A stretch of DNA of 64,000 nt from an uncultured virus (IMG/VR IMGVR_UViG_3300031587_000158) (IMGVR_UViG_3300031587_000158); one strand, 5' to 3'; counted from the first letter of the stretch, positions 941-49,919 are shown. Notes: a model not told the origin generated them from the sequence alone. Program-made: numbers and translations.

Positions 941-1264
941 ATGGCACAAGATATAGTAGATAAGGCGTTTAAAAAGACAGGGAAAAGAGTATATGAGTGG
1001 GAGGATATAACTTCCAGTCTTGTTAGGAGCTTGTTTAAAAAATATACTCCGGGAATAACAGTAGAGGATATTGAATTTAACGATGAAGAGCACGAGATTT
1101 ATGTGACGATAGAAACATATGATATGAGAGGAATAATAGACAAAGAGCAAAGAATCTCTCTTGAGAAAGGTTATAATAAGATTGTCAAAGTATTAAATGC
1201 AGCGGGGTGGGACTATCTTTTTTCAGACATCAAGAGAATAAAGATCATGTTTAAGCGTATATAA
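941..1264 (+). CDS. Hypothetical protein with shared N-terminal tag (MAQDIVDKAFKK)
   Basis: 107-aa ORF; the leader matches the repeated motif. Confidence 0.8.
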   Translation: MAQDIVDKAFKKTGKRVYEWEDITSSLVRSLFKKYTPGITVEDIEFNDEEHEIYVTIETYDMRGIIDKEQRISLEKGYNKIVKVLNAAGWDYLFSDIKRIKIMFKRI

Positions 1265-1278
1265 TTGGGGGTATAAAG

Positions 1279-1560
1279 ATGGCTGAGGAGATAGTTGAAG
1301 AGGCACTTAGAAAGAAAGAGGAGGAAGACAGAGAAGAGTTTTGGCTCAAACATCTTATCCTGGAAATTGAGAGTGCAATAAAAGATGAAGGATCTGCGGT
1401 GTGGATGTATGATAAGATCCGAACGGATATTGCTGCTATGTATCCTCCGGGTACATTGGAGTATGATACATTAAAGGAGATAGCTGGAGACGAGTTGAGG
1501 CATAGTCAGTCGTTACAGGAAATACGTGCATCGCTCAAAAAGCGACTTGCTGGTTTATAG
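1279..1560 (+). CDS. Ferritin/rubrerythrin-like helical protein with shared N-terminal tag
   Basis: AIKDE..A...Y and EIAGDELRH resemble half of a ferritin-like diiron bundle; leader MAEEIVEEALRKK. Confidence 0.7.
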   Translation: MAEEIVEEALRKKEEEDREEFWLKHLILEIESAIKDEGSAVWMYDKIRTDIAAMYPPGTLEYDTLKEIAGDELRHSQSLQEIRASLKKRLAGL

Positions 1561-1581
1561 AGAAGAGTAGAATTACTCGTA

Positions 1582-3777
1582 GTGTATAAAATGGACGAGC
1601 GAAAAATTCTGAGGTTTAAGGAGACACAGGGATTTAGTAAGTGGAAAAAATTCTTTCCGCCTGAAGCTGTGTCACATCCTGCGAAGATGAATTTGCATCT
1701 GTTGAATTATTTGATACAGCGTTATACTAATGAGGGTGATACCCTGCTTGATCCGATGAGTGGAACTGGGTCCACGGGTATAATAGCGGGATTAAATGGC
1801 AGGAATGTGATTTGTATAGATTTGGAGAAGAAATTTCATGAGATGCAAGTAGGTGTGGATTGCGATGGGTACACCTGTCATGTATTGGGCTGCTATGAGA
1901 GGCGGGAGTTAGAATTAACGATTAAGCAATTAGAGGAGGAATTATCGGGAATTGATAAAGAAGAGGTATGGGCTAAGTGTGTATGGCTAATAGATGATAC
2001 AGGGCATAGATACATTGATACAAACAATACTGATCCTGAGATTTTAAGATTATATGATAAGTTTATCGAGTTGTACTATGCAAAAGGGAAATATGAGAAA
2101 TTACCACTAAAACCACATCACTATACAGGGTGTGAAGAATTGTATAAAGCCAATCCTGAGGGCTTTATTCAAAGAGGGAAAAGTATCTTCTTACAGGGTG
2201 ATGCGCGTAAGCTGAGTGATTTACTGAGAGAACATAAGGATGAGATTTCAGCCTGTTTATTCTCGCCACCTTGGGGTAAGAAAGAGAGCTGGCAGAGATA
2301 TGATGGTGAAAAGGGGTTCCATAGTTATGATGAGAATGAGCCTAAAAATAGGTGTAAAAGAGATTACATTGAAATAGAGCACCCTGATAACATAGGCAAC
2401 CTACCGTTGGGTGATGTGGATACAATTATTACCAGTCCGCCATTTAAAACTGCGAATGAAGGTGGGGGATTAAATAAGAGTCCACCTGATACTTTTAGGG
2501 GTGTTCTAAAAGAGCATTCACTTAAACTGTCTGATGATCCAAATAATATCGACAATATGCCTTATGGTAAAGTTACGGCTATTATTACAAGCCCCCCCTA
2601 TTCAGAGGGAATAGGGCATTCACAAGGAAAACGAGCGGGGCATGATATGGTCGGTAAGGAGAGTTTTGTAGGTTTTTATGGTGACGGAAACAAGGAGAAC
2701 ATAGGTAATCTACCGCATGGCGATGTAGATTCTATTATTACAAGCCCACCTTATAGTGAATGTGAACATGACTACAAACATGGGTTTAAAGTTTTAGGTG
2801 ACAACTTTAGAGGCAGAAAGGCTTGGGAAGATAAGAGGGATATACCCCTTCAAGAAAGCAACATAGCGAAACTGAAGCATGGCGATATTGATTCCATTAT
2901 CACTTCACCACCATATGCAGGAAGTACGGCATTCCAGGATATCAGTTTTATGAAAAAGATTACTGATGATCAGAGCCTAAAAATTAGGAGAGGGGAAGTA
3001 AAGGGGCACTATCGCTCACCCGAAGCGGAATTGCAAGCCCTCGAGCGAATGGAAAAGGGTAAAATAGAGCATGAAGAGAATATAGGTAGTCTTCCATTCA
3101 GCTCTCCCGATGCGATAATCACTTCTCCACCGTACTCAGAAGGAACGGGTCATGGTAGAGGAAAGGATGAAAGTTTGCAGACTGAAAAGAAGCTTTATCT
3201 TCATGGTGCCGGTTCATATTCAAAAACTGATGATACTGACAATATTGGTGAAATAAAAGAACATGGTGATATAGATGCAGTATTGACATCGCCACCATAT
3301 GCAGAGAGTGTAAATGCTCCTAATGATCCGCATAAACGCGCCGAGCGAATGCTGAGAGCTGGTTTAGATCCTAAGACCATTGTAGGTGGTCAAGCACGGT
3401 GCGGCGAAATAGATTGGACATATTCAGATAGTACTCAAAACATTGGCAACCTCAAACATGACGAAAGTGATACAAGGGATAAATCAGAGACGTACTTGGA
3501 GGCAATGAGAAAAGTTTACGCTGAGTGCCACTCGGTGCTAAAACCACATGGTTTGATGATACTAGTTGTGAAGAATTTTATAAGAGAGAAGCGAGTCGTA
3601 CCATTAACTGAGCATACCATTAAATTGTGTGAAAGTGTAGGCTTTAAGCTCAAAGAACGGTCAGTATTCAAATTACCGCAACAATCCTTCTGGCGCATCA
3701 TTTATTCAAAAAAATACCCAGAAGTTGATGTTTCGGATTTGCAGTTTGAGCATATTTTAGTTTTTGAGAAGGGGTAA
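1582..3777 (+). CDS. DNA amino-methyltransferase (N4C/N6A type) with seven tandem SPPY-type repeats
   Basis: HPAKM, SAM-binding LLDPMSGTGSTG, GDAR, seven copies of (F/T)SPP(W/F/Y), and C-terminal YAECHSVLKPHG...EHILVF. Confidence 0.9.
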   Translation: MYKMDERKILRFKETQGFSKWKKFFPPEAVSHPAKMNLHLLNYLIQRYTNEGDTLLDPMSGTGSTGIIAGLNGRNVICIDLEKKFHEMQVGVDCDGYTCHVLGCYERRELELTIKQLEEELSGIDKEEVWAKCVWLIDDTGHRYIDTNNTDPEILRLYDKFIELYYAKGKYEKLPLKPHHYTGCEELYKANPEGFIQRGKSIFLQGDARKLSDLLREHKDEISACLFSPPWGKKESWQRYDGEKGFHSYDENEPKNRCKRDYIEIEHPDNIGNLPLGDVDTIITSPPFKTANEGGGLNKSPPDTFRGVLKEHSLKLSDDPNNIDNMPYGKVTAIITSPPYSEGIGHSQGKRAGHDMVGKESFVGFYGDGNKENIGNLPHGDVDSIITSPPYSECEHDYKHGFKVLGDNFRGRKAWEDKRDIPLQESNIAKLKHGDIDSIITSPPYAGSTAFQDISFMKKITDDQSLKIRRGEVKGHYRSPEAELQALERMEKGKIEHEENIGSLPFSSPDAIITSPPYSEGTGHGRGKDESLQTEKKLYLHGAGSYSKTDDTDNIGEIKEHGDIDAVLTSPPYAESVNAPNDPHKRAERMLRAGLDPKTIVGGQARCGEIDWTYSDSTQNIGNLKHDESDTRDKSETYLEAMRKVYAECHSVLKPHGLMILVVKNFIREKRVVPLTEHTIKLCESVGFKLKERSVFKLPQQSFWRIIYSKKYPEVDVSDLQFEHILVFEKG

Positions 3778-30876: not shown

Positions 30877-30946
30877 ATTCAACGGGATTGCTACTATGTG
30901 TTCTACCTTTTCTCCCCAAAACTTCTGATACAATTTCTCTCGCCAT
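30857..30946 (-). CDS. 29-aa micro-ORF consisting mostly of the shared tag
   Basis: Manual translation MAREIVSEVLGRKGRTHSSNPVEYGRENY; GGAGG RBS upstream. Confidence 0.5.
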   Translation of the reverse strand: MAREIVSEVLGRKGRTHSSNPVEYGRENY

Positions 30947-31511: not shown

Positions 31512-31856
31512 TTAGAAGAACATTCGTTCAACATATTCTGTTGCCCATGCTTCTGAAATTTTTAGAGCTTCAGGGTATATGGATCTTATAGTCTCCTCCC
31601 GAAGCTCAGGAGCTTTCTCAGTCATTACTTCTGATATACCTTTTGTGTACTCATCTGCATGCTCCAAAGCCATTTCAGCGATATGTCTCGAAAAACCTTT
31701 CTTTTGTAACCGTTCAAGGAATTTTATTCGTTCATCGATAAAATCCTTATCTATCCATCTCGGGTTGGTTGCGAGTTCCCGTATATCAGTGTCAGTTAAG
31801 GGTGCTTCAGGACTAAAAATTTCCTCAAGTATCCTTTCGGTGATTACTTTCTTCAT
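31512..31856 (-). CDS. Hypothetical helical protein with tag-like N-terminus (ERILEEIF)
   Basis: Tandem paralog of 31159-31509. Confidence 0.8.
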   Translation of the reverse strand: MKKVITERILEEIFSPEAPLTDTDIRELATNPRWIDKDFIDERIKFLERLQKKGFSRHIAEMALEHADEYTKGISEVMTEKAPELREETIRSIYPEALKISEAWATEYVERMFF

Positions 31857-32790: not shown

Positions 32791-33144
32791 TTAGAATGAA
32801 TACCGATGTCTAATACAAGGTGCTGTCTTCATCAGGATATTATCATAAAAGAGTAGATCAAATTTTTCTCTTGGATGCTCACTTTCTATTCTGTGTCTAA
32901 TAGTCTTTCTCAAATACGATGAGATATGTATAGCCTTTTCAGGGTATTGATCCCAGTCAATAATCCTACCAGATTTATTAAAAGCTATGCTTGTTGGCCC
33001 ATATCCTTCCCTTCGTATTCCTTCTTTTATAGATCCTATTGTGGATATTGCTAACCCCCCTTTTCTTAGCATATCCTCGAGGTCAGATCCACAGTATATC
33101 TTCTTCTTCCTTTTAAATACCTCCGCTAAAATCTCATGTGCCAT
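32791..33144 (-). CDS. Hypothetical protein with shared tag (MAHEILAEVFKRKKK)
   Basis: Paralog of 30502-30876. Confidence 0.8.
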   Translation of the reverse strand: MAHEILAEVFKRKKKIYCGSDLEDMLRKGGLAISTIGSIKEGIRREGYGPTSIAFNKSGRIIDWDQYPEKAIHISSYLRKTIRHRIESEHPREKFDLLFYDNILMKTAPCIRHRYSF

Positions 33145-33156: not shown

Positions 33157-33540
33157 CTAGCTAAGTTGCTTTCGCGCCATACCCTGAGCAACTTTCATGG
33201 CAAAAGAGATCATCCTTCTCCTGTCTTCAGACTCCTCGATTGACATTCCCCATACTTTTTGTCCCATGGATCTAGCCAGTACAATCGCCCAAGGGAAATA
33301 TATAATCCACTTTTCCTTTCGCATAGCCGGTGTTATCATCTCTCGTAGCTCTGGAAACTGTTCCTCTAAAGGAGCTAACGTGACCCTGATTGCATCAGGA
33401 TTATGCCTGATGCCGGGAATCGACCTGGCTTCATGATCTGATAGAATGATTTTGTATCCTCCAACCTCTATCTCGGTAGTCCCCTCTCTTTTACCTTTTT
33501 TTCCTGTGGCTCTATCTACTATCTCTTCCGCAAGTGTCAT
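33157..33540 (-). CDS. Hypothetical protein with shared tag (LAEEIVDRATGKK)
   Basis: 127-aa ORF in the operon. Confidence 0.75.
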   Translation of the reverse strand: MTLAEEIVDRATGKKGKREGTTEIEVGGYKIILSDHEARSIPGIRHNPDAIRVTLAPLEEQFPELREMITPAMRKEKWIIYFPWAIVLARSMGQKVWGMSIEESEDRRRMISFAMKVAQGMARKQLS

Positions 33541-33552: not shown

Positions 33553-33774
33553 TTATCTTCGTGCTCTTCTCGCTTTCCATTCTGCAATTGCTTCATCAAG
33601 TGATTCGTAGATACCCTTTCCAACCATCTCCTTTAATATCGGTAATACCTCTGGTAACTCAGCCTCAGCTAATTTTTTGACTCTTCTCTCTCTTTTGCTT
33701 CTAAATATACTCTCGATTATCTCTTCTGCAAGGGTCCCTTTTAGTCCATACTTTTCAACTATCTCTTTTGCCAT
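33553..33774 (-). CDS. Small basic protein with two copies of the tag
   Basis: MAKEIVEKY...LAEEIIESIFRSKR. Confidence 0.75.
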   Translation of the reverse strand: MAKEIVEKYGLKGTLAEEIIESIFRSKRERRVKKLAEAELPEVLPILKEMVGKGIYESLDEAIAEWKARRARR

Positions 33775-33785: not shown

Positions 33786-34202
33786 TTAATCGACAGAGTA
33801 AGTTAGGTGCACGGTCAAAGCTCTCAGTGTCTTGTCAGCACCTGTAGAGCCTGTTCCAAGGTTCAATTGTACGATGTCACCTGCAACAATATTTGTATAC
33901 GCCGAATTAAGTGTCCCCATATCTCTTGGCACGCCTTTCGTCCATGATCCTGATGAAACCATCTGTGCAACAATATTACTGCCTGAGCCTATTAACTCCA
34001 AATCCTCATAGTTTACCGGGTCAGTAGCTACATCTTCAGCAACTGATAATTCCGCTTTTTCCAATGTTATTGCATTTCGTGGCTTGAAGATTGCGAATGT
34101 CCTTCGAGGAAATGGAGCTGCATTGTCGCCAACACAGACTACTTGCTGCCTATATCGTTGCGGTACTTCAAAATCCTCTCTTGTTACTTCTCTTTGTATC
34201 AT
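33786..34202 (-). CDS. Putative minor capsid/jelly-roll protein; paralog of 36267-36701
   Basis: Both share F..P.....I..A, Y..L.L and GD.V.L patterns. Confidence 0.6.
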   Translation of the reverse strand: MIQREVTREDFEVPQRYRQQVVCVGDNAAPFPRRTFAIFKPRNAITLEKAELSVAEDVATDPVNYEDLELIGSGSNIVAQMVSSGSWTKGVPRDMGTLNSAYTNIVAGDIVQLNLGTGSTGADKTLRALTVHLTYSVD

Positions 34203-34216
34203 GGTTCAGTTATAGT

Positions 34217-35062
34217 TTATGGTGTCACACTCAATGAATCTAATACTGCATCGGTATTATCTTCAGGTTGTAGCTGGAGAACGAAATTCTCTACAAATGG
34301 GATGCCAAAAATGAAGTAGTCCATAGAACTCTCGCCAGCAGGGATTTCTAGCTCGTCGGAACTCAGTACCTGTGTATAGTCACCTATATTTCGCATCGTC
34401 ATGCCAATTTTTTGGTCTTTATCTGAAGTAAACCCCAAAGTCATTATATTAACTGGAGCTGGTAACGAGCTTCCGACAGTAAAGAACTGTGGTGCTACAA
34501 GACCATTTAGATTGGCAAATCTTACTCTATTGTTAATCGGTGTCGAAGCTAGTTCCTTCCACTGGAGTAAGGAAAGTGACCATTGGACAGGGGCGGCATA
34601 ACTCAATGCCCCCCAACCTAATATGTCTGAGAAAATACCCGTTGCTTTCCCGCCAACTGGGACATTGAAATTTCCCCGTGGAGTAGCTACTGTGCCATAC
34701 CTTTGCGATATGACAGTTGAGCCCGCAACACTCGTCCCTCTCAAATTACCCACGCTTACTCCAGGAATGTATCCATCACCAGAACCGGAAAGAAGTGAAC
34801 TCCCTAAACGGTTGTAATCCTCACATGTCCCATCAAGGACAGCAGCTTCAGCCGCTGCTATCTGCATCCATTCTACAACTTCTCTACCATCAATAGGTAC
34901 TCTACTTTTCACTTCTGGTAAGATTTCTGCTGATCTAATACTAGCCCTGAGCCAGGGGAATATACGTGGATTAGCCAAACCCCTTTTGAATTCAGCGGGT
35001 GAAATCATCTCTATTCTGCGTCCTGACTTGACTTCCTTCTTCTCTACACGAAGTATTGGCAT
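34217..35062 (-). CDS. Putative structural protein
   Basis: Basic N-terminus and beta-rich C-terminal domain within the capsid block. Confidence 0.55.
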   Translation of the reverse strand: MPILRVEKKEVKSGRRIEMISPAEFKRGLANPRIFPWLRASIRSAEILPEVKSRVPIDGREVVEWMQIAAAEAAVLDGTCEDYNRLGSSLLSGSGDGYIPGVSVGNLRGTSVAGSTVISQRYGTVATPRGNFNVPVGGKATGIFSDILGWGALSYAAPVQWSLSLLQWKELASTPINNRVRFANLNGLVAPQFFTVGSSLPAPVNIMTLGFTSDKDQKIGMTMRNIGDYTQVLSSDELEIPAGESSMDYFIFGIPFVENFVLQLQPEDNTDAVLDSLSVTP

Positions 35063-35083
35063 ATTATCTCTATTCCCTCATTT

Positions 35084-35518
35084 TCATGTCTTGATATACC
35101 TGCCATTCCAACCACCACTGACCCTCCCTGCAACCGGCTGTATGTAGTATAATCGTACTTGAACATTCGCTCCACTGCCTACAAATGAAAATGGTGATCC
35201 TAGGTAATCCCGTTCCAGCATACCCTTCGAGGCAAGCTTGAACTGTCTCACCACGGTCCAATTTGCTCCGGCATCGATTGTCTTTTTCAGTTTTAAGAGT
35301 GTCTCAACATCACTCTCGAGGTCAATGTGGTGTATCAGGAGTGTGTAGCCATCTGCTACCGTAAACGCATCGGTCAATGCCGTCTCAGCAACATTACCTA
35401 CTGCATCCGCTTTGTAATCTGCCTGTAAATTTCTATTGGGATCCTCCTCGAACCTGAAATCCTCTGTAGTCGATTTCGGGTCATGTAATTCCTTTCGAGT
35501 ATTATAAACATCTGGCAT
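35084..35518 (-). CDS. Putative small jelly-roll structural protein
   Basis: Alternating beta-strand pattern; capsid block. Confidence 0.55.
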   Translation of the reverse strand: MPDVYNTRKELHDPKSTTEDFRFEEDPNRNLQADYKADAVGNVAETALTDAFTVADGYTLLIHHIDLESDVETLLKLKKTIDAGANWTVVRQFKLASKGMLERDYLGSPFSFVGSGANVQVRLYYIQPVAGRVSGGWNGRYIKT

Positions 35519-35526
35519 TTTTTATT

Positions 35527-36174
35527 TTATCCCTCCAATTTCACCGGTGATACACCCCATGCATCCTCTGCTGTTGTCGCCCATGAGACGCCATCAATAC
35601 CACCAAAGCCAAAGATACGCCTTCGTAACTCAGCTTTTCGTAACTTCTCTATCAGCTTCTCATCCTTCACGAACTTCACATTATAGCGCCAGATATGTAA
35701 TTCAAGCTCAGGCGTTACCGACCGACCTGATTTATTGTAAATCTCGAAATTCTGTTTTGTCTTGTAGGGAAATAGTATCTCTGCCTTCTCCGGGTGCTTA
35801 TCTATCAGCTCACCTGTAAGATACCCCCAATCTTTCTTCGTGATTGTCGTCTTCTTATCCAATCCATTCATCGGATTCGTCTCCCAGTAGTGGTAGACGC
35901 GCACATCCTTCCGCGGCTTTATGTTATATCGCAGGTGGTATATCCGTAGTGGATGTGTATCGAGGATCTCAAGCAAGTCATCGCCTGATCCATGACCATC
36001 CTCACCGAGATAATTCTTCTCATGGTATCCTTCATCTGCTAACGCCGTGAACTCGTTGTATATCAATTCTCTGTAATCTCTCGTTATTACCTGGAAAAAG
36101 ACCACGCCAAGATCAACAAAGTTAATGCCACCGAAGTAGCCCTCAAGTAAGCTCCAGTCATCAATTTCTACCAT
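35527..36174 (-). CDS. Candidate second capsid protein
   Basis: 215-aa beta-rich ORF with GGTGA RBS, next to the MCP candidate. Confidence 0.45.
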   Translation of the reverse strand: MVEIDDWSLLEGYFGGINFVDLGVVFFQVITRDYRELIYNEFTALADEGYHEKNYLGEDGHGSGDDLLEILDTHPLRIYHLRYNIKPRKDVRVYHYWETNPMNGLDKKTTITKKDWGYLTGELIDKHPEKAEILFPYKTKQNFEIYNKSGRSVTPELELHIWRYNVKFVKDEKLIEKLRKAELRRRIFGFGGIDGVSWATTAEDAWGVSPVKLEG

Positions 36175-36266
36175 TATCTATCACCTCCATTTCTGTTCGG
36201 TAGGTTTCCTGCTCCTCATACTCTTATGCGGGTTCCTACAAAATAAAAAAGGAAAATTTGGTTAAT

Positions 36267-36701
36267 TTATTCCCGCTTGTACTCGATCTTTACGATCAGC
36301 TCGTCAGTCGCTTTTCCACTCGCTCCCGAAGAGAGCTTGTTCAGTGATACCACATCCCCTTCCGCGAGTACTCGGTGGGTAGCATCAAGGGTTTGGAATG
36401 CCACCTCGTCGAACGCTGCAAATGCCTGTCCACCTGTTTTTGTCTCTATCTTCCCTATCTCGTTACTTGCAGTTCCATCCCCACCCTTATCTGTCAATAT
36501 CAGGGTTAAATAATCTGCTGCGTTCAATGCGATCGCTGACGCATTCACTACGCTCGCTGCAACAATCTGACATGGATGTGGAGCAACGAATACCGGTTTT
36601 TCATCATCAGAGCCGGCAGCCACTGTTCCAAAGTACATCTCCACCGTCCTTCTCTCTGCATCCTCATCCCTAAACAAACTTAGAAGTCTATTTACTGGCA
36701 T
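36267..36701 (-). CDS. Putative capsid decoration/vertex protein
   Basis: FVAPHPCQIVAAS...LAEGDVV; small beta-sandwich pattern. Confidence 0.6.
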   Translation of the reverse strand: MPVNRLLSLFRDEDAERRTVEMYFGTVAAGSDDEKPVFVAPHPCQIVAASVVNASAIALNAADYLTLILTDKGGDGTASNEIGKIETKTGGQAFAAFDEVAFQTLDATHRVLAEGDVVSLNKLSSGASGKATDELIVKIEYKRE

Positions 36702-36735
36702 TTTCTATCACTTCCTATTATCACTCGTCAGCGCC

Positions 36736-37449
36736 TTACGTGTGAGATGGTGTCTCAGCCCTTAGCCAGGGTAGTTTCGCGTAGGTTATACCTTCCCAGA
36801 AGGGTTCGATGTCCTGGTTTGCATTCACTACCTTTACCCTCGAGTATATCTCTTCGTCCCGTGCATACAAAAACGGATTTGACAGGGGATATATTTGTAC
36901 CTCTGAACTTCTGAGTATATGCTCCAGATACTGAACCGACTTCTCGGATCCCTGATACACGAACTTGTACGCACTGATATTTGGGTTCGCTAAGAAAGTC
37001 CCTACACCTATGATGACCATGCAGCCGAAATCATCTCTGGTTATCATGTGTGGTGTCGTTGAACTTGCGATATGATTCTGCCATCCGGCTGCTGCAGGGG
37101 TCGATTTCCACGTGGTCATCGGTACGTTCGCTGAGTTCTCAACGTGCTCAGGTCTTATTCTCACAGCACCAAATCCAGCAGTTCCATCCGCACCCGTGAA
37201 AGAAACTGCGAGCATCTGCTTCGCTCTCATGCAGCCGAAAAGTAGCGGTTTGTGGAACTTCGCATAGCTTAGATCCACTACTCTCTCCTTCATGTCTAAC
37301 CTCAGCAGGTCGTATACGTCCATGTTGAATATATCAAGCTCGTCGTCGCTTAGCTCTGAGACGTTCTCCTTATATGTCGGGTCTGCAAGTATCTCTGCCA
37401 TCAAGCTCTTTAACGTGTCAACATCTATTTTCCCTATTTCTACTCCCAT
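36736..37449 (-). CDS. Candidate single-jelly-roll major capsid protein
   Basis: 237 aa, helical N-arm then a beta-strand series (FG..RIRP, TW......GW, VIIG, GITY); near the head of the structural operon. Fold is inferred. Confidence 0.5.
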   Translation of the reverse strand: MGVEIGKIDVDTLKSLMAEILADPTYKENVSELSDDELDIFNMDVYDLLRLDMKERVVDLSYAKFHKPLLFGCMRAKQMLAVSFTGADGTAGFGAVRIRPEHVENSANVPMTTWKSTPAAAGWQNHIASSTTPHMITRDDFGCMVIIGVGTFLANPNISAYKFVYQGSEKSVQYLEHILRSSEVQIYPLSNPFLYARDEEIYSRVKVVNANQDIEPFWEGITYAKLPWLRAETPSHT

Positions 37450-37490
37450 TTTTTATCACTTCTCCTTTAGGATTACGTGGATTACATCCC

Positions 37491-38012
37491 TTAGAGGGAC
37501 ATCCACATCCTCCTCCTTCTTTCCTCTATACTATAGAGGCTAGTGACCAATCCCCCTGGTTTAGCCTCTTCAGGCAAAATCCGCTCTAAAGCTTCTTTAG
37601 CCGTTCCTGGACTTGCACTTGGTGTCTCAGTAGTCGCTGATTTCCCGCCTACCATACCCTGTCCACTTATCCCCGGTATTCCAGGTATCCCTGGTATTCC
37701 AGGGAGTTTAGGGAGCATTTCAAGTCCTGGTAGTTTTGTGGGTATTGGGAACTTGCCTGCCTCTATCTGTCTCGCTGCAAATTCTAATGTCTCAACTGGT
37801 GCTAGCATCTCCTTCGGGACCTCTATACCCATTGCAGTGATTGGTCCCGTAACGAAATCATATACCGGTTTTATCATTGGGCTAGCCATTGCTTTCACTT
37901 GTGTTACCACTCCCTTTTCCGCTGTGGCAAATGGTTTTACCAGATCACTAATCTTGGGAACTCCCGCAGGTAATCCCGGAAATCCTGGAAGTCCTGGTAA
38001 TTGTCCTGCCAT
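37491..38012 (-). CDS. Pro/Gly-rich putative scaffold or membrane-associated virion protein
   Basis: LPG/IPG tripeptide repeats at both ends of a helical core. Confidence 0.65.
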   Translation of the reverse strand: MAGQLPGLPGFPGLPAGVPKISDLVKPFATAEKGVVTQVKAMASPMIKPVYDFVTGPITAMGIEVPKEMLAPVETLEFAARQIEAGKFPIPTKLPGLEMLPKLPGIPGIPGIPGISGQGMVGGKSATTETPSASPGTAKEALERILPEEAKPGGLVTSLYSIEERRRRMWMSL

Positions 38013-38017
38013 TTGTA

Positions 38018-38230
38018 TCACCTCACTTTCTCTGCAAATCGCTCTTTCATCTTATCGTATGTTGCTGTTGCTATTTCCGCAGGTGTAGGGATCCCCAAAG
38101 TGTCTGCTACCTCTGCTGGTGCAAGAGTTTTAAGTACTGTTCCTGGGCCTGGTAGACCGAGTATATCTTCGAAGATGTAATCTATCGGTGCAAGGGGATC
38201 GAATTTCTCTACAACTTTTTCTTCGTCCAT
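38018..38230 (-). CDS. Small putative structural protein
   Basis: First gene of the operon; GAGGTGA RBS; LGLPGP/LGIPTP repeats. Confidence 0.65.
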   Translation of the reverse strand: MDEEKVVEKFDPLAPIDYIFEDILGLPGPGTVLKTLAPAEVADTLGIPTPAEIATATYDKMKERFAEKVR

Positions 38231-38326: not shown

Positions 38327-39844
38327 ATGATGAAAGTATCTCCTTTACTTAAGGAGAAGTTGAAGTTAGTTAATCCTAGTAGCACTGAGTTAGTGCACCT
38401 AGTTATTGAGGCGGACGAAAAAAAAGCGGATTATGTTCTCTCACAGCTAAGGGAAGCGGGGTTTACTGTTGATACTTCGAGAATTTCAACGATACTTGGT
38501 AAGACGTATATTCCAGCAACTGTTCCGGCTGAGTTTGTATCAGAAGTAGCGAAGATAGAAGGTGTAAGGATGGTGCATAAGTCAATGCCTCGAGCTATGG
38601 GTGGGATGACAACTGCAAAGGTCCCCTTTTTTGGCCGTGTAGTGGACGAGTTGATTGGAGAAGTTAGGATACCAGCAATTGAAATACCAACAGCCGCAGT
38701 CCTGGAGGCGATGCCCAATCCTATAACGCCCTTAAAGGCTTTGGGAAATATCGCAGTGCCATTTACCGGCGTGAACCCTCTGGTTGATGTAAAGATCTTT
38801 CCAACAAGTGAGACATTCAGGATCCTCAAGGGAGATATAAAGACGAAAGAGGGAGAAGGTATCACGGTGGCAATATTAGATACCGGGTCACCTCGCCTGT
38901 GCCCCCAATTTCTCATGCCCTTAAAAGCTGCAAGTTTAATAGAGCACACCGTTATTCCCGAGCCTCCATTTGATATGATGGCACATGGGAGCTGGTGTCA
39001 CAATTGTGTTTGTGGCGATTCAGTCTCCTCAATTTATGGATCTTTGGTTGGGGGTGCTCCGAAAGTTGATAAGTCTGTCCATGTGAAATGCCTCAATACC
39101 TTTCCAGGAACTGGGACGACTGAGGGGATCCTGAAAGCTATTGAGATAGCTGTGAACTCAGGAGCAAAAGTTATCTCGATGAGCCTCGGTGGTTCAGCGC
39201 AAGGTCCTTCTGTTGGTTCCGATGCTGATGTTGAATGTAAACTTATCAATGATCTTTCTGTATTAGGATATATCTTTGTGATCGCTGCGGGGAACTCAGG
39301 AAGTGGTTTATTTACCTGTGGATCACCGGGGGCTGCGGATAAGGCAGTTACTGTGGGCTCTGTATCTATTATGGATAATTTTTTACCTGCCTACTGGTCA
39401 TCACGCCTGCAATCCGATTGGTATGGCGAGCATAAAGACGAGTTTGTGCGAGATTTGGCGAGCTATGGAGATAGACTTATCAAGCCAGATTGTACATCAC
39501 TCGGTGGTGGAAGAGCGAGTGAGGAAGCTACGCCTGATGAGGTTATATGGAGTGGAGCATCGGGCTACTTTGAAGGGTTCTATGATGGCATAAAGGACTT
39601 ATCCGAAGGTATGCATGGAACGAGTCAGGCTACACCTACCGCAGCAGCACTAATCGCATGTGCGCTCTCAGATGGTATTGTAAGGAATGGTTCTGATGTG
39701 AAGAGATATTTACGGGAGACAGCCGGTGGGAATGTAATTCTTGATCCACTAAATAAGGAGGTTGATATGGACTATATAGGCAAATATGGTAAGAGTGTGG
39801 CTACTGGCTGGGGATTGCTTAAACTTGCGCGGCTTAGGGGGTGA
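38327..39844 (+). CDS. S8 subtilisin-like serine protease with N-terminal prodomain, no signal peptide
   Basis: VAILDTG (Asp), HGSWC (His), AAGNSG (oxyanion Asn) and GTSQATP (Ser). Confidence 0.93.
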   Translation: MMKVSPLLKEKLKLVNPSSTELVHLVIEADEKKADYVLSQLREAGFTVDTSRISTILGKTYIPATVPAEFVSEVAKIEGVRMVHKSMPRAMGGMTTAKVPFFGRVVDELIGEVRIPAIEIPTAAVLEAMPNPITPLKALGNIAVPFTGVNPLVDVKIFPTSETFRILKGDIKTKEGEGITVAILDTGSPRLCPQFLMPLKAASLIEHTVIPEPPFDMMAHGSWCHNCVCGDSVSSIYGSLVGGAPKVDKSVHVKCLNTFPGTGTTEGILKAIEIAVNSGAKVISMSLGGSAQGPSVGSDADVECKLINDLSVLGYIFVIAAGNSGSGLFTCGSPGAADKAVTVGSVSIMDNFLPAYWSSRLQSDWYGEHKDEFVRDLASYGDRLIKPDCTSLGGGRASEEATPDEVIWSGASGYFEGFYDGIKDLSEGMHGTSQATPTAAALIACALSDGIVRNGSDVKRYLRETAGGNVILDPLNKEVDMDYIGKYGKSVATGWGLLKLARLRG

Positions 39845-40409: not shown

Positions 40410-41873
40410 ATGGGTGTATACGAAAGTATTAGCGATTTAAAAGAGAGGGAGGGCTGGTTAGATGTTATTTCCTATGGAACCACTGCCGAATATCCACATA
40501 CCCGTGGCTGGGGATCGTGGGAAGGTATAAGAGAGGTAATACAAAATAGTCTCGATGAGATGCAAGAGCTGACCAACGTAGCCTCGTATAAAAGTGAAGT
40601 AACCGCAGATGGTATCTCGATTTCAGATATTGGGCGCGGGTTAGGTGTCCATAACCTGCTCATAGGTAAGTCTGAGAAACCCCCGTGGGCACGGGGTAGG
40701 TTTGGGGAGGGGTTAAAGATAGGTCTTATGACCCTGCTCGTGCGAGGGTATGATGTAGAGGTATACTCAGGTAGCTATTATATAAAGCCAAAATTTGCGG
40801 ATATGAAATTTGCAAAAGTCGAGCCACCAGGTTATTTCATTGAAAAGATATTTGTTATCTGTTATAGAGCAATTACACCACCTGTAGAAGGAACAATTGT
40901 CAAGATAAAAGGATTGTTTGATGATTATCGAGAGAGAATAGCACTGAATTTGGATAAGTATGTAGTCTTTAAAGCATGGACCGTCGTTGCAGGGAAGACA
41001 TTTTATTACACGATTATGAACTTAGGCCCTGGTAGAAGAAAGATCTTCGTCAAGGATATATATGTTTCCGATGCGAATGACGTGGTAAAAGGAGGTGCTC
41101 TTTACTCATATAATTTAGTAAATGTGGTTCTTGATGAGTCAAGACGAATACCCTCATCAAGTTCTGTATTTGAGGAATTTGGTCGCATATACGCGGTATG
41201 TACTAACCGTGCTATCTGGAGGGATCTACTCTGGCTCATTAAAAGTGGTGAGGAAAAACTTGAGCGGCATATAGAGCTGCCCTACATAAAAGATTTAGAA
41301 GTACAAACCACTATCGCGGACGTATGGCTGGAAGTATATGGTACGAAGGCAGTTGTGATGACGAGATCCGATTTACGAGATTATGCGAGATGGCTTGGAT
41401 ATGAGCCAATTGATCTTCCTTATTACTACAAATATGTATTGGCTAAGTTTATCCCCACTGATGTCGCAATGGTGAATACCTTCCACGAAGCAAAACGGGG
41501 AAGGGTAGAAGAGAGAGAATACACCCCTTTAGTAGCTGACAGAATAGGGGTTGCGAAGCTTATTGCAGAAGAACTTAGTGTGATATATAAACGTCCAGCC
41601 CCTTCGGTGGAGGTATGGGAACTACCACCAGGTAGTAGGGGAGAGCATCATCGTGATGCAAATAGAATTGTTATATCAAAAAGGATAGTTGATGGCCCAT
41701 TATATGATTTCCTTGAGAATACTATGCACGAACTCACACACCATTATACAGGTGCTGAGGATGGGTCACCTGAAATGATAAGGGAGTTGGGTATACTTGC
41801 AGGGCACGTAAATGAACTATTGATCTCTAAACCGGAACTCGTTACAAGGATAAGGATGATGCTTGAAAAATGA
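40410..41873 (+). CDS. GHKL-type ATPase fused to a C-terminal zincin metallopeptidase-like domain
   Basis: REVIQNSLD (N-box), DIGRG (G1), GRFGEGLK (G2), GT; C-terminal HELTH (HExxH). Confidence 0.85.
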   Translation: MGVYESISDLKEREGWLDVISYGTTAEYPHTRGWGSWEGIREVIQNSLDEMQELTNVASYKSEVTADGISISDIGRGLGVHNLLIGKSEKPPWARGRFGEGLKIGLMTLLVRGYDVEVYSGSYYIKPKFADMKFAKVEPPGYFIEKIFVICYRAITPPVEGTIVKIKGLFDDYRERIALNLDKYVVFKAWTVVAGKTFYYTIMNLGPGRRKIFVKDIYVSDANDVVKGGALYSYNLVNVVLDESRRIPSSSSVFEEFGRIYAVCTNRAIWRDLLWLIKSGEEKLERHIELPYIKDLEVQTTIADVWLEVYGTKAVVMTRSDLRDYARWLGYEPIDLPYYYKYVLAKFIPTDVAMVNTFHEAKRGRVEEREYTPLVADRIGVAKLIAEELSVIYKRPAPSVEVWELPPGSRGEHHRDANRIVISKRIVDGPLYDFLENTMHELTHHYTGAEDGSPEMIRELGILAGHVNELLISKPELVTRIRMMLEK

Positions 41874-42076
41874 GTTACAAAGTCGTCAGGAAGACTAAAT
41901 GGGGGGACGTAACTATAAGAGGTGGATTCAAGTCAGCAGAATCTGCCGATATGTTCCGAACTGACTATAAAAAAGATACTCCGCATATTCCAGGCGAATT
42001 AGAGGTAGTAGAAGAGGAGGTGAAGACTATCGTTGATGAGGTGATGGAGGAGTTATGGCAGGGAAGAAAGAGATAA
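41870..42076 (+). CDS. Small hypothetical protein with tag-like C-terminus
   Basis: Ends VKTIVDEVMEELWQGRKR. Confidence 0.65.
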   Translation: MSYKVVRKTKWGDVTIRGGFKSAESADMFRTDYKKDTPHIPGELEVVEEEVKTIVDEVMEELWQGRKR

Positions 42077-42360
42077 TCAAAGAGATACTTAAAACGCTTG
42101 AAAAGAAAGAAGAAAAAAAGCTCATAAAAACGATAGAGTTGGACTGCCCTCCCGGACATCCAAGACCGGGTGACTTAATAGATGGTGTGATAGAGGGTAC
42201 AGGTCTGCCGAAAAAGGAGACTGTAAGTAGGTTCTTTGGTAACTGGACATGGGACTACTCAGAGATACCTGATGAGGAATGGAAGAGGATACGACCTATC
42301 CTGAAGGAGAGGATAACCAGACTCTACGAGTTGGGGGTAATCAGATACGGGAGTTGGTGA
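42055..42360 (+). CDS. Hypothetical protein with tag-like N-terminus
   Basis: KEIIKEILKTLEKK followed by IELDCPPG.PRPGD...IRYGSW. Confidence 0.75.
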   Translation: MAGKKEIIKEILKTLEKKEEKKLIKTIELDCPPGHPRPGDLIDGVIEGTGLPKKETVSRFFGNWTWDYSEIPDEEWKRIRPILKERITRLYELGVIRYGSW

Positions 42361-42558: not shown

Positions 42559-42876
42559 ATGAGCGAAGAGACAATAGATAGAATAGTAAGAGAAGCATTT
42601 AGGAAGAAAAAGATAAGAGTACGAGAGGTTGGAGTTGAAAAAATAGTTCTTGATCCAGACGATCCAATTGGAACATGGGTGATAATACCAATAAGGTTCC
42701 ATCTTCCCTCTGATAGGTTAAATGACATCCAAAAGAAAATTCTCACTATTCTACAAGATGAAGAATTAAATATTGGGCAATCTGTAGGTGTGCTATTATT
42801 CCTTCTTGAAATGATTTTTTGTAATCAGGTATTTGATAAAAAAGTAAAGGACGTTATCGAAGAGTTAGTAAGATAA
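42559..42876 (+). CDS. Hypothetical protein with shared tag (DRIVREAFRKKK)
   Basis: 105-aa ORF. Confidence 0.75.
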   Translation: MSEETIDRIVREAFRKKKIRVREVGVEKIVLDPDDPIGTWVIIPIRFHLPSDRLNDIQKKILTILQDEELNIGQSVGVLLFLLEMIFCNQVFDKKVKDVIEELVR

Positions 42877-42877: not shown

Positions 42878-43300
42878 ATGGCGAAAGAAATAATAGACGA
42901 GGTGTTCGGTGAAAAGAAAAGAAGTAGTAATAACGGACTCGTGAAATTTTGGCGAGAAGCTTTTGAGAAGAGACTCGGTGATGAGGGGTTAAAAGCCCTC
43001 AAAGAGTTAAACTCAAAATATAGAGAAATGGATTTATATCAGATCCATGAAATATTCCCAAAGATAAAAATAGGGAGTTTAAAGGGGGTTCTAGATGATT
43101 TGAATTGGATTTGTTTGGAAATTACCAAACCCGAAGGTCCAGTTTATTCCGCTTTCAAGGGAAAAATGGAAGAACTCGAGAGAGATTTAGAAAGGTTAAA
43201 AGAAGATGGATATTTTTCGGGTGCAGAGCCTGAGGAATGGAAAAAACTTGTTGAGGTTTTAGGGGTCGAAAAAACAAGAAAGATTTTTGCGAAGGGATAG
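42878..43300 (+). CDS. Hypothetical protein with shared tag (MAKEIIDEVFGEKK)
   Basis: 140-aa ORF. Confidence 0.8.
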   Translation: MAKEIIDEVFGEKKRSSNNGLVKFWREAFEKRLGDEGLKALKELNSKYREMDLYQIHEIFPKIKIGSLKGVLDDLNWICLEITKPEGPVYSAFKGKMEELERDLERLKEDGYFSGAEPEEWKKLVEVLGVEKTRKIFAKG

Positions 43301-43306: not shown

Positions 43307-43891
43307 ATGGCAAAAGAGATTATAGACGAGGTATTTAGGAAAAAGAAGAGAAGGAGAAAAGAATTAGGGATAACCATAGGTAATCCCGAAATTCGCTTGG
43401 AGATACCTCGTGGAGCAATGGATTTTATTACAACAATGACCACGGGTTTCATCTACCACGAGGCTATTTTTGAAGGTAATACAATCACGATCTTCTCTGG
43501 TAAGATACCACTTGAAGAGGATATTGCCTCACTGTGTAGAGCCGAGGTTTTACCTATCGCCGTTACTGCACAAGCTATCAGAACGCCTTTTGGTCGAGTC
43601 CTTAGATTTGAGGTCAGGATGTATGATGACCCAGAGCATCCTTACATAGGGGAGGCTTGGGCAAATTTACTCGATAGTACACAAAAAGAAGGCGTAGAAA
43701 GACTAAAGACCCAAAGTAAAACTTTATTTTTATTATTCGATGCTAATAATGCAAGGAGATGTACAAAAGGGGTTACAATCTCACCTGAGTTTGGATATGG
43801 TCTTAATCTTGCTATCGATGCTGCGGAGGAGGATCCAGCGGTTAATTTTGATGATGCGAAGATGTGGGCAATGAGCCGAATACGACTATAG
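43307..43891 (+). CDS. Hypothetical protein with shared tag (MAKEIIDEVFRKKK)
   Basis: 194-aa ORF. Confidence 0.8.
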   Translation: MAKEIIDEVFRKKKRRRKELGITIGNPEIRLEIPRGAMDFITTMTTGFIYHEAIFEGNTITIFSGKIPLEEDIASLCRAEVLPIAVTAQAIRTPFGRVLRFEVRMYDDPEHPYIGEAWANLLDSTQKEGVERLKTQSKTLFLLFDANNARRCTKGVTISPEFGYGLNLAIDAAEEDPAVNFDDAKMWAMSRIRL

Positions 43892-45566: not shown

Positions 45567-46238
45567 ATGGCAAAAGAGATGAAAGATATCGTTGATGAAC
45601 TCTTCGTAAGAGAGAGGAAGGAGAAAGAGCTGGGGGAGTATGTAAAAAGTTTGTGTAAAAAATATGGCGTTAAATACCGGTTCCTGAGTGAAAGAAAATA
45701 TGATAAGTCCGTTGTAGAAGAGATTAAGAGTAAATCAGTTGTGATATTTTTACCCGATCTCGCTGATGATCTTCAAATGTTAGGTGAAATACCAGAAGGT
45801 AGGAAGAAGGAGATTTTGGAGGAGATAATAAAACATGCGAATACTCATATCAGGCTTTTTGATGAGCTTGAAAGAAGGAGGATATCGGTTGGAGAGCAGA
45901 CAAGAATTGAATTTGTGCTTTGCAGTGAATTTTACGTGGCAAAAATCGCTCCTTTAAAAGAATTTGATCAGATGAAATATAATAAGTTGAGGATTGAGGC
46001 ATCAACAAAAGAAGGAAGATCTAAAATAGTTAAGAAAATACAGAAGAATGTGCTATATACCTCGAGTATTGTGATTCTATTTAGCGAGGATGAGATTAAA
46101 GAATTATTTGAACCTGATCAGCCAGTTGCTTGCGAGTTCCTTCTGATACTAAAAAATCTATATACAATAACAAATTCAGTTGATGATATTATTAAGAATG
46201 TAAAACTCATAAGATTCCTTGTGGGGTTTGCGAAATAG
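45567..46238 (+). CDS. Hypothetical protein with shared tag (KDIVDELFVRERK)
   Basis: 223-aa ORF; EEIIKHANTH may be a degenerate zincin motif. Confidence 0.75.
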   Translation: MAKEMKDIVDELFVRERKEKELGEYVKSLCKKYGVKYRFLSERKYDKSVVEEIKSKSVVIFLPDLADDLQMLGEIPEGRKKEILEEIIKHANTHIRLFDELERRRISVGEQTRIEFVLCSEFYVAKIAPLKEFDQMKYNKLRIEASTKEGRSKIVKKIQKNVLYTSSIVILFSEDEIKELFEPDQPVACEFLLILKNLYTITNSVDDIIKNVKLIRFLVGFAK

Positions 46239-46239
46239 A

Positions 46240-47127: not shown

Positions 47128-48001
47128 TTAGATATATTTACTAATGATAATTCCAAAATCAAGTAAATACGTTCGTAATATCTCCTCTCGATCTTCTTGG
47201 TATTTTGTACAAAGCTCTTGCATCTTCTCTGGCATTGGTATTGCTTCTCCGCTATATTTATCTGCCTCCTGCTTTACATATCTATCCAACCAGAATACAT
47301 AAACTCCCGCTCCAACCGTCGGAACGGAGGCTTGCTTGGTGTACGCATCTAAGGTCTCTGACCATCTTATCTTCTCTATCTCGCTCTCGCTCTTACCAGT
47401 TTTACTCGCTACTATCTTTCGTACACGATCCCAAGTTTTGTACTCTCTTAATATATCACCGCCCCATATCCACCTTCCACTCCTCAAGCTATCCTCATTC
47501 TCTTCACATTCCATTTTCTCATGTACGACACTATCCAAAAGATTTACTGAATGAGCCTCTGATATGTAATGCTCAGTAGCCGTTAATACCCGGTAGTACC
47601 TCTTTCTCTCGCAGTCAAAAATAAAATGTAGCGATATGAGCGCAGGATCAAAAGTCATAAAAAAGGCCAGACAATATGGGATCTCTAAAAAAATGGCACT
47701 AATATCGAACCCAGATCCCTTTAGTCTCTTTACATCCTGGTTGGCATCGGTTTGATAAATTCCTTTGACTCAGGGAAGATGACTGGAATTTCCTCTGGTA
47801 CAACCGTCTTAACCCACGATCTTAATGCAGGTGGAACGAACTCCAACCCTGGAATTTCCCTCCTTAATCGTATGACAGCCAAGGTCTTACCACCCTCTTT
47901 AGTGTTTCGACATCCAGCTTGACATCAACTACCCTCTCCTCTTTACTCTCTCGTTTTTTAAAAGTCTTATCTACTATCTCAGCTACAATCTTCTTCTTCA
48001 T
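47128..48001 (-). pseudogene. Apparently frameshifted gene carrying the shared tag
   Basis: ATG 48001 gives MKKKIVAEIVDKTFKKR and stops at 47864; two successive -1 frames continue into ORF 47128-47658. Confidence 0.5.
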
Positions 48002-48430: not shown

Positions 48431-48541
48431 GCAATTTAACCTTAGCTGCAATAATAGGGCAGCTAGCGATGGCTCTTAGCTTGGCTTATTATCTATGCTA
48501 CAGCGTTAATTCAAAGTCTTGAAAATAGTGAGAAGATAAAA

Positions 48542-49381
48542 ATGGCTGAAGAAATAATCGATGAGATTATCAGAAAACATTTTGCCGGGTTCATGATATT
48601 CCGCTACCCTAAATGGGAGTTCAAGCAGAATAGCCGAAGGACATATGAACTCGCAAGAGCGATTTATAATCAATTCCCTCAAAGAAAGCTGATTAAAAGG
48701 GAAATTGTAAAGAGGGAAATACCGAAAGGGGAGACTTTAAGATACTTTGATCTGGATGCTAAGAGGATGACTACGATACTATTTCTCCTGCCATATCCTG
48801 ATGTCATACTAAAAGAGGGGGAAACTGTGTGGATGTCAATAGCCCCGTGGGAACTGGATATGATGAGGCACTATGCCGACCTATCAAGAGGATCCATATT
48901 GGCGGGGGGTCTCGGACTGGGGATTTATCAATATTTTGCAAATCTCAGGAAACCTCTCGTCAGGGAGATAGACGCGGTGGAAATTGATAGTGAATGCATA
49001 GATCTCGTTCAGTCATTTGTTCCTGAAACTAAGATTGTCCAAGGAGACTTCTGGGAGTATCTTGAATCAACATCGAAAAGATATGACACAGTATTTGTGG
49101 ATATATGGCCGGGTGTGATCACTGCATATGATGATTATAAGAGAGCTAAGGAGGGAGCTAAGAAAGTCCTAAAACCTACAGGTAGATCAATAGTTTGGAT
49201 GGAAGAGCTGCTTAAGGTTATAGAGAGGAGACTACCAAAAGAACCCATGGCTCCAACAGGTGCCTTTGGATATTACGAACCCTGCCTGATATGTGGAAAG
49301 ATTCTTAGAAATGATTATGCCGGATTGTGTATGGACTGCGCTGATGGACTGGGTGTGAGTGAGCTGTTTGTTCGACGGTGA
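48542..49381 (+). CDS. Class I SAM-dependent methyltransferase (spermidine-synthase-like fold) with shared tag and C-terminal Zn finger
   Basis: GGLGLG, VEID, GDFWEYL, YDTVFVDIW; CLIC/CMDC; leader MAEEIIDEIIRK. Confidence 0.85.
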   Translation: MAEEIIDEIIRKHFAGFMIFRYPKWEFKQNSRRTYELARAIYNQFPQRKLIKREIVKREIPKGETLRYFDLDAKRMTTILFLLPYPDVILKEGETVWMSIAPWELDMMRHYADLSRGSILAGGLGLGIYQYFANLRKPLVREIDAVEIDSECIDLVQSFVPETKIVQGDFWEYLESTSKRYDTVFVDIWPGVITAYDDYKRAKEGAKKVLKPTGRSIVWMEELLKVIERRLPKEPMAPTGAFGYYEPCLICGKILRNDYAGLCMDCADGLGVSELFVRR

Positions 49382-49400
49382 TAAATTTTAGAGAGATAAG

Positions 49401-49919
49401 ATGCCACTGTATGTAGCCAAGGACCTGATAGATGAGTTGTTCAGAGGTAAGAAGAGAAAGATTTTAAGAGATCTACGTATATTAGGTGAGATACTTGTTG
49501 AATACAAGTGGCCTTCTGAATGGGGTATGGGAAACTTTTTGCTTGGACTTACCGTAGCGATATATCGGGATTTTACTAAAAAATCAGTGGATGGGGGTTA
49601 TGTCTATTCCAAGCTTGAGACTTTGAAGCATGATGTTGAAGGAATAACTATTGGTGATATGAAGGAATTAGTGGAATACAGAACCCGTGAGTATATCACA
49701 AATATGAGAGAGTTCATCAAGCTTAATAGAATCCTCTATGAAATAATCACGCGATACGATTTTGGTCCACATGAGGATAGGAAAGAGGTTATGCTCAAGG
49801 TGCTGGATACCCAGAGGGACATCGCAAGTTTCAGTCTCGACGAGATGAATAGGGCAATGTTATTAGAAAGTGTTTTGGAATTGGAAAAAGTTGTGGATAG
49901 GTGGTTTGAGAGAGGATAA
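49401..49919 (+). CDS. Helical hypothetical protein with shared tag (AKDLIDELFRGKKRK)
   Basis: 172-aa ORF. Confidence 0.75.
   Translation: MPLYVAKDLIDELFRGKKRKILRDLRILGEILVEYKWPSEWGMGNFLLGLTVAIYRDFTKKSVDGGYVYSKLETLKHDVEGITIGDMKELVEYRTREYITNMREFIKLNRILYEIITRYDFGPHEDRKEVMLKVLDTQRDIASFSLDEMNRAMLLESVLELEKVVDRWFERG

Follow-up and report, generated by a model that had tools for sequence, protein, structure and literature searches.

Which function could connect 18 mostly unrelated proteins that begin with nearly the same peptide? The question is raised by a 64,000-nucleotide (nt) stretch of DNA from an uncultured virus (IMG/VR IMGVR_UViG_3300031587_000158), here called the window. An initial annotation had listed 18 gene starts between positions 941 and 49,919 as sharing an N-terminal element, composed of an acidic helix and a basic tail, and had proposed that it loads cargo into the virion. 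This element (the tag) was found at 18 of the 18 listed starts. It comprises 13 residues with the consensus A-[KE]-[ED]-I-[IV]-[DE]-[EK]-x-F-[RK]-K-K-K and is present in 19 copies over 18 open reading frames (ORFs), ORF 33553-33774 having it twice. The tag is real, N-terminal and preserved as a peptide, and it may serve as an address for proteins that are carried in a virus particle.

Detection of the tag and statistical controls

For the detection of the tag, a position-specific scoring matrix (PSSM) of 13 columns was built from 18 copies picked by coordinate; the copy at 48001 was left out of the seeds. A six-frame scan of the window with this matrix resulted in 19 sites of at least 13 bits, comprising the 18 seeds and a single internal site at position 6399 within a 199-amino-acid (aa) ORF (6255-6854). 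The unseeded copy at 48001 reached 12.7 bits. Among 20 mononucleotide shuffles of the window, 18 contained no site of at least 13 bits and two contained one.

The scan is circular for the seeds, since the matrix had seen them, and leave-one-out and split-half analyses were used as controls. In the leave-one-out analysis, 13 of the 18 copies remained at or above 13 bits, the lowest values being obtained for 31856 (3.0 bits), the first copy of 33774 (3.4 bits) and 29935 (6.5 bits). A matrix made from the 29-34 kb region placed all of the other copies (9/9) above the 99.9th percentile of internal 13-mers; in the reverse direction this was the case for 8/9 held-out copies.

The position of the matches was analyzed in 110 greedily called ORFs of at least 50 aa, a set that includes some spurious antisense ORFs and excludes two mini-ORFs. 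Here, 17 matches were found at 3,850 N-terminal positions and one at 14,570 internal positions (Fisher p=3.9e-11). Residue-shuffled N-termini yielded on average 0.08 matches, with a maximum of 2 (200 shuffles). The enrichment over shuffled sequence and over internal positions of the called ORFs, on which the initial annotation depended, thus holds. The tag directly follows the Met in ten ORFs and is located 3-6 residues further in for the remaining eight.

Conservation of the peptide and of the coding DNA

All four codons are used for the Ala in column 1, three for Ile and both for Phe. The same codon was shared in 335 of 730 same-residue pairs (0.459), compared to 0.435 as expected on the basis of codon usage. 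Between pairs of copies, DNA identity amounts to 0.49 for the tag but to 0.31 for the 30 bases before it and 0.27 for the DNA behind it; the third codon positions of the tag are 0.35 identical. Since codon sharing is close to the codon-usage expectation and the flanks are unrelated, the constraint acts on the peptide, as had been proposed from the synonymous variation of the codons.

These values also bear on the possibility that the likeness resides in the DNA, as a recombination or translation signal or because the 5′ ends of genes were recently copied. Such copying would fit the tandem tags (33774; 30946/30876) and also a separate 627-nt metagenome contig that matches 38 nt of one tag-coding stretch (42886-42923) with 5 differences, both flanks being unrelated. 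This contig has a similar depth (10.1 vs. 11.2), and its sample is possibly the source of the window. The look-alike suggests that tag-coding DNA is sometimes copied and that at least one further tagged gene exists nearby. As an explanation for the whole set, a DNA-level likeness is very improbable: it is close to refuted by the codon sharing and by the identities of the third positions and of the flanks, and the DNA upstream of the tags is unrelated.

Diversity of the tagged proteins and detachability of the tag

The proteins behind the tag differ from each other. In an all-against-all BLASTP comparison of 16 bodies (residue 25 to end) only two related pairs were found, namely 30502/32791 (E 1e-15) and 31159/31512 (E 2e-19), which agrees with the initial description of bodies that are unrelated apart from two paralog pairs. 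Family searches were confined to the 64-kb window of a parent contig of 118,394 bp, the other 54 kb of which lie outside the search. None of the 16 submitted tagged proteins reached a Pfam cut-off, and 48542-49381 alone had a usable match (PHROG). All 18 tagged proteins appear to be soluble, with a maximum 19-residue hydropathy of 1.4 or less in 17 of them and of 1.81 in 42559.

Orthologs from elsewhere were found for two tagged genes. Three orthologs of 43307-43891 (P0019, P0048 and P0049), which originate from different sources and have bodies that are 66% identical to it, only start where its position 28 aligns, and the tag is missing in 3/3. They are known as protein calls, so that a mis-called start is possible, though three independent gene calls agree. 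All have a C-terminal extension of 30-40 residues that is acidic, then Pro-rich and ends in F-K-K-x-x-R-R; the address may have switched protein ends in these orthologs. The ortholog of 29696-29935 (P0018) retained the degenerate tag. To the question of the initial annotation whether homologs elsewhere lack the tag, the answer is hence apparently yes for 43307-43891 and no for 29696-29935. Because one ortholog cluster is tagless, the tag appears to be detachable. These comparisons show a tag that behaves as a portable module on unrelated soluble proteins and is apparently dispensable for the body.

Genomic distribution of the tagged genes

The tagged genes are concentrated in two operons that diverge from ~38.25 kb. 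The minus-strand operon starts with eight untagged genes, followed by 11 ORFs (29,696-33,774) of which eight are tagged. The plus-strand operon encodes a subtilase, a 142-aa protein, a GHKL ATPase and a 68-aa protein, followed by ~14 ORFs (42,055-49,919), again with eight tagged. The remaining two tagged genes (2/2 ORFs in 941-1,560) are located after the MCM gene. No tag was found in ~33 ORFs between 1.6 and 29 kb, in the 14 ORFs of the block between the tagged stretches or in ~45 ORFs between 50 and 64 kb, and the regions 8-29 kb and 50-64 kb contain no PSSM site of at least 13 bits. The six-frame scan thereby bears out that the glycosylation island and the gene array at 54-64 kb are free of tags. 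The description of the tagged genes as flanking a capsid/protease block can be kept in part: they flank a block with an S8 protease and a jelly-roll protein, the capsid nature of which is only plausible (Z 7.2).

Within the minus-strand operon, 33553..33774 (73 aa) carries two in-frame copies of the tag, a weak one at residue 2 (17.9 bits) and a strong one at residue 16 (26.9 bits). The tag of 33157..33540 (127 aa; 26.3 bits) lies three residues in. ORF 32791..33144 (117 aa; 27.3 bits) is a paralog of 30502..30876 (124 aa; 30.7 bits), which starts with an ATG at 30876. The second paralog pair consists of 31512..31856 (114 aa; 17.4 bits) and 31159..31509 (116 aa; 22.1 bits). The tag of 31512..31856 is degenerate, located five residues in and without a basic tail; the same applies to 29696..29935 (79 aa; 18.7 bits), where it begins five residues past the Met. 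The mini-ORF 30857..30946 (29 aa; 24.3 bits) encodes the tag only and has a good ribosome-binding site. It ends 22 nt within the gene 30502-30876; this gene occupies the +1 frame and lacks an evident ribosome-binding site. The mini-ORF may be a broken (frameshifted) tandem tag or an upstream ORF, or it may mark a site of frameshifting. Amid these genes, the untagged ORF 31872-32711 (minus strand), with cohesin and CarboxypepD_reg domains, is the only ORF of the tagged stretch with a signal peptide.

On the plus strand, 42055..42360 (101 aa; 18.3 bits, leave-one-out 9.4) has a degenerate tag and is followed by 42559..42876 (105 aa; 24.6 bits; tag five residues in), 42878..43300 (140 aa; 30.4 bits) and 43307..43891 (194 aa), which carries the best tag copy (34.5 bits). 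In 45567..46238 (223 aa; 23.6 bits) the tag is located four residues in, and another sequence resembling the tag core lies internally at 45807. A small tagged ORF of ~45 aa from the ATG at 48001 (47864..48001, within the ORF 47864-48013; 12.7 bits) is on the minus strand, opposite to its neighbours. The last two tagged genes of the operon are 48542..49381 (279 aa; 29.1 bits) and 49401..49919 (172 aa; 25.7 bits; tag six residues in). ORF 48542..49381 has a Rossmann-type methyltransferase-like body and a C-terminal Cys cluster. Its assignment as an S-adenosylmethionine-dependent methyltransferase received weak support, with a PHROG methyltransferase match of 8e-7 and a Pfam Spermine_synth score of 21.7 bits, which is below the cut-off of 22.9.

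Directly upstream of the first tagged gene of this operon, the untagged 68-aa ORF 41870..42076 (plus strand) has a C-terminal look-alike of the tag core (10.3 bits) with a basic end four residues on. The tandem paralogs 43864-44511 and 44517-45185 (plus strand; 29% identical) are untagged although they lie amid tagged genes.

Both genes after the MCM gene are on the plus strand. For 941..1264 (107 aa; 26.1 bits, leave-one-out 16.6), the tag follows right after the Met and is the sole copy with a Q at column 2; no family was found in Pfam, PHROG or NCBIfam. ORF 1279..1560 (93 aa; 29.7 bits) has an ExxH motif in its body. Its designation as ferritin-like could not be confirmed, as nothing was found in Pfam (E<=5), PHROGs or NCBIfam, and the sole PDB match was a designed helix bundle (E 0.038).

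The conserved block with a jelly-roll protein and a subtilase

The eight untagged genes at the head of the minus-strand operon (33786..38230) encode proteins of 70, 176, 237, 144, 215, 144, 281 and 138 aa. On two independent metagenome contigs (L001 and L002), the genes for the subtilase and for the 70-, 176- and 237-aa proteins are found with the following genes in the same order.

The 237-aa protein (36736..37449, minus strand) is a candidate capsid protein and docking partner of the tag. Members of its family are encoded at 1028-1741 on L001 and at 3949-4665 on L002. A search among 1.84 billion proteins revealed 29 representatives at 50% clustering (E<=0.001), which are ~235 aa in length and viral-looking; the family has no Pfam or PHROG model, and no relatives were found in IMG/VR or in the species-genome collection. 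With 8 sequences, AlphaFold gave an unusable model (predicted local distance difference test, pLDDT, 38.5). With 34 sequences, a pLDDT of 92.6 and a predicted template modelling score of 0.89 were obtained, and the model consists of three N-terminal helices and an eight-stranded sandwich. According to this model, the 237-aa protein is a single jelly roll and not an HK97 fold.

An exhaustive structure aligner placed the capsid protein of SPV1 first (6oj0_T; Z 7.2, root mean square deviation 3.5, 122 residues aligned), a score in the range of Z 7-8 that is common according to the aligner's own warning. HCIV-1 was ranked sixth (Z 6.4) and VP17 of P23-77 thirty-first (Z 5.6), and folds of the nucleoplasmin type came in between the capsid proteins with Z 6.7-6.9. 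In a Foldseek search against viral models, the top matches were uncharacterised proteins with a template modelling score of ~0.3. As leads only, the ESM Atlas showed likeness of the 237-aa protein to mostly viral, unnamed clusters, and low-scoring sugar-binding-type matches of the 281-aa protein on a poor model. Based on the model, it is plausible that the 237-aa protein is a capsid protein and the block a capsid module. A co-fold of the tag (42 aa) with the 237-aa protein scored 0.01 against a mark of 0.32 and is uninformative either way.

The subtilase (38327..39844, plus strand; ORF 38258-39844) is an S8 protease (PF00082 7e-21, 75.2 bits vs. a cut-off of 21.8) and appears to be intracellular, no signal peptide having been found. 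The Asp, His and Ser motifs of subtilases are visible in the sequence. The likely true start at 38327 aligns with the homolog on L002 (1483-2997, minus strand), and on both L001 and L002 the subtilase gene adjoins the jelly-roll gene. The N-terminal region of ~190 aa is propeptide-like. The subtilase could be a particle-maturation protease unlike the usual prohead proteases.

Further genes of the window

The window has a G+C content of 40%, and its gene blocks switch strand in step with the GC skew. No tRNA genes were found within it. A Pfam scan of 73 window proteins identified the C-terminal end of an archaeal-type MCM helicase (2-469; MCM_lid 4e-18, MCM_WH_arc 7e-11), a DNA methylase (1582-3777), a sugar-modification island of ~13 kb (14867-28280), a JAB domain protein (28293-28949) and a tyrosine integrase (52608-53516). 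The sugar-modification island contains several glycosyltransferases, a GDP-mannose dehydratase, epimerases, a DegT-type aminotransferase, a B12-binding radical SAM enzyme and an acetyltransferase. The label archaeal is derived from the type of the MCM helicase, and the window is probably an integrative archaeal virus-like element.

For the 487-aa GHKL/RIIA-like ATPase (40410-41873, plus strand; phrog_6077 3e-27), matches were obtained to phage proteins that carry the annotation histidine-kinase-like ATPase or RIIA. It shares its operon with the subtilase and has relatives in many large bacterial phages. For the majority of the remaining ORFs no match was found in Pfam, PHROGs or NCBIfam. The region 54000-64000 contains ~35 small ORFs, all on the plus strand and with neither a family match nor a tag, and has the appearance of an early-gene region. 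A further tandem paralog pair (9058-9993 and 10026-10955, minus strand) is 64% identical. A tail-fibre-like N-terminus, which had been guessed for 50545-51525, is not supported, the phage records giving no match.

Occurrence of the tag in other genomes

In IMG/VR, a strict degenerate DNA pattern of the tag gave no match and a loose pattern 7 single matches; none of these 7 loci had more than two PSSM matches of at least 10 bits. The degenerate pattern had at least 120 single, unrelated matches in species genomes, with at most 2 PSSM matches of at least 13 bits per locus among the matches listed. A profile of the tag retrieved 9 window proteins and P0018 from 5.8 billion proteins, of which the 8,000 candidates sharing most words were scored. 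The initial annotation had suggested looking for the tag in related viral genomes; no multi-gene set was detected in these scans. The profile search provides weak evidence that the tag is rare.

No relatives of the 194-aa tagged protein, P0020 or P0021 were found in IMG/VR. A literature search found no paper combining the terms capsid targeting sequence and archaeal virus, and a looser search gave nothing relevant. In the accessible part of a paper on the ANME-1 virome, neither an MCM nor such tags are mentioned (PMC9894754).

Comparison with known targeting systems

The closest precedent is the capsid targeting sequence (CTS) of phage T4. It is reported to send the internal proteins IPI-III and Alt to the scaffolding core and to be removed by the prohead protease (PMC3012670). 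As in T4, a single short and portable N-terminal peptide is the only common part of diverse, fast-changing proteins. The genes with the T4 CTS belong to the head-assembly programme, and here the tagged genes adjoin the candidate capsid block. The sequence of the tag differs from that of the CTS, and the major protein encoded nearby has a single jelly roll instead of an HK97 fold; Pfam and PHROGs revealed neither an HK97 nor a portal or terminase family in the window. With regard to the (L/I)-x-E site that is cut in T4 by the gp21-type prohead protease, [ILV]-x-E sites are present in 18/18 tagged N-termini, a frequency expected from their composition. The sole protease found in the window is the S8 subtilase and not a gp21-type enzyme, the putative host is archaeal, and packaging and cleavage are putative here.

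In phage P1, foreign proteins enter the head when they carry an N-terminal stretch of DarB of less than 30 residues. The Dar cargo includes a methyltransferase-type enzyme, and the Dar proteins have no consensus tag in common (PMC9024508). One of the tagged proteins in the window is likewise methyltransferase-like. In contrast to the Dar proteins, one tag is common to 18 ORFs.

Similar designs are known outside of phage heads. In bacterial microcompartments and encapsulins, a short terminal amphipathic helix or peptide docks unrelated cargo on the inner face of the shell via a flexible linker. The tag resembles these peptides in design, and here it is found on a mobile element with an MCM and an integrase; no microcompartment shell (BMC), encapsulin or HK97 shell protein was detected among the 73 window proteins with Pfam. 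In extracellular contractile injection systems of the PVC type, the payload genes directly follow the structural operon and have a common N-terminal loading region. Unlike in these systems, Pfam and PHROGs gave no match of a window protein to a sheath, tube or baseplate family.

Possible functions of the tag

The helical hydrophobic moment of the tag is 0.64 at 100 degrees and 0.23 at 170 degrees. Its most conserved positions are hydrophobic (I4, I/V5, x8 and F9), with Ile at column 4 in 16/18 seeds and I5 flagged as at least 90% conserved. As a helix, the tag would have a hydrophobic face, an acidic opposite face and a run of K/R, and thus may be a docking helix with an electrostatic tail, flexibly linked to varied cargo. 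In the mechanism proposed here, this amphipathic helix of two to three turns (hydrophobic face I, I/V, A/V, F) and the subsequent K/R tail would form a detachable docking label, which the element puts on the N-termini of varied, fast-changing small soluble proteins. The labelled proteins would be expressed from the same two divergent operons as the jelly-roll protein and the intracellular subtilase, and the label would bring all of them to one partner in the assembling particle. The cargo would then be taken into the particle for delivery in the following infection; contact with DNA may be made by the basic tail, and the subtilase may cleave the label off.

A common partner, packaging, cleavage and delivery are inferred. 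The operon layout, the absence of the tag in other gene classes and the precedents in T4 and P1 point to the loading of a variable set of proteins into a particle. By analogy with the T4 CTS, we assign a probability of roughly 0.4 to the reading that the tag is an address which loads varied soluble proteins into a particle and is perhaps clipped by the subtilase. A more far-reaching version is doubtful, namely that a large archaeal virus with a jelly-roll capsid protein independently evolved an equivalent of the T4 CTS, consisting of a subtilase-cut helix-plus-polybasic address that brings at least 18 proteins (~1/7 of the window genes) into each particle, to be delivered during infection, and is gained, lost and moved between orthologs.

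Several observations weigh against loading into a particle. Two of the tagged genes adjoin the MCM and DNA-methylase genes rather than the block. Nucleoplasmin-type and sugar-binding jelly rolls score Z 6.6-6.9 on the model of the 237-aa protein, and Foldseek found no PDB match for it at E<=0.001. The window gave no Pfam or PHROG match to an HK97 protein, a portal, a packaging ATPase or a prohead protease of known type. The termini of the block proteins are only weakly tag-like, with 7.1-10.3 bits compared to 8.7 bits for the 95th percentile of internal maxima; the idea that the tag is a copy of a scaffold terminus is not supported by these weak matches. In addition, neither the scans of IMG/VR and of the species genomes nor the protein profile search revealed a relative with multiple tagged genes.

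Instead of a particle protein, the partner could be a hub, for instance a sliding clamp, a factory for replication or transcription, or the neighbouring GHKL/RIIA-like ATPase. As a short linear motif for this hub, the tag would bring many accessory proteins to DNA or to a host machine. With I/V-x-x-[AVI]-F ahead of K/R, the tag is similar to the clamp-binding PIP box (consensus Q-x-x-[ILM]-x-x-[FY]-[FY]), which is likewise short and terminal and has its hydrophobic residues at i, i+3 and i+4, with basic residues behind them. The copy at 941, beside the MCM gene, has the Q at the matching position, but this Q is present in 1/19 copies and two aromatic residues in 0/19, and no clamp gene was found in the window with Pfam. 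Two tagged genes are in the replication region and the GHKL ATPase is encoded in the plus-strand operon, whereas 16/18 tagged genes go with the jelly-roll/subtilase block and not with the replication genes. We regard such a hub as unlikely. Less likely still is a tag that acts alone, as a stable helix with a basic tail that has no specific protein partner and either promotes expression, solubility or thermal stability or makes direct contact with nucleic acid or an internal membrane. By the helix-dipole argument, the charge order of the tag, acidic first and basic last, is favourable for a helix standing by itself. DNA or acidic lipids would be conceivable ligands of the K/R tail, and an inner membrane is frequent in viruses with jelly-roll capsids. 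The acidic face, however, is ill-suited to acidic membranes, and the hydrophobic positions are the best conserved ones, which argues for docking rather than for charge alone. Furthermore, the tag is missing from the ~45 small ORFs at 50-64 kb of the same genome, and its displacement by 3-6 residues in eight ORFs and to residue 16 in one shows that it is not tied to the start-codon context.

The tag could also be a processing or turnover leader, so that the subtilase or a host protease cuts or degrades the tagged proteins and thereby times late activity without any packaging. The plus-strand operon begins with the gene of a conserved intracellular S8 protease, and a dibasic site accompanies the [ILV]-x-E site in 18/18 tagged N-termini. 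Both kinds of site are expected in E/K/I-rich sequence anyway and therefore indicate compatibility only, and the conserved hydrophobic helix face exceeds the needs of a cleavage site. A mere leader is the least probable of these three alternatives. Loading into a particle remains the best available reading of the tag, to be distinguished from the observation of the tag itself, which is confirmed.

Even if the partner is not part of a particle, one peptide on 18 unrelated proteins indicates a single hub. If the proteins are loaded into a particle, tag-directed cargo loading would exist beyond the HK97 tailed phages, and the 13 residues would be a handle for loading foreign proteins into the particle of an archaeal virus. 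The tag would then reveal from sequence alone which proteins an uncultured archaeal virus brings into its host, and these would probably include counter-defence factors.

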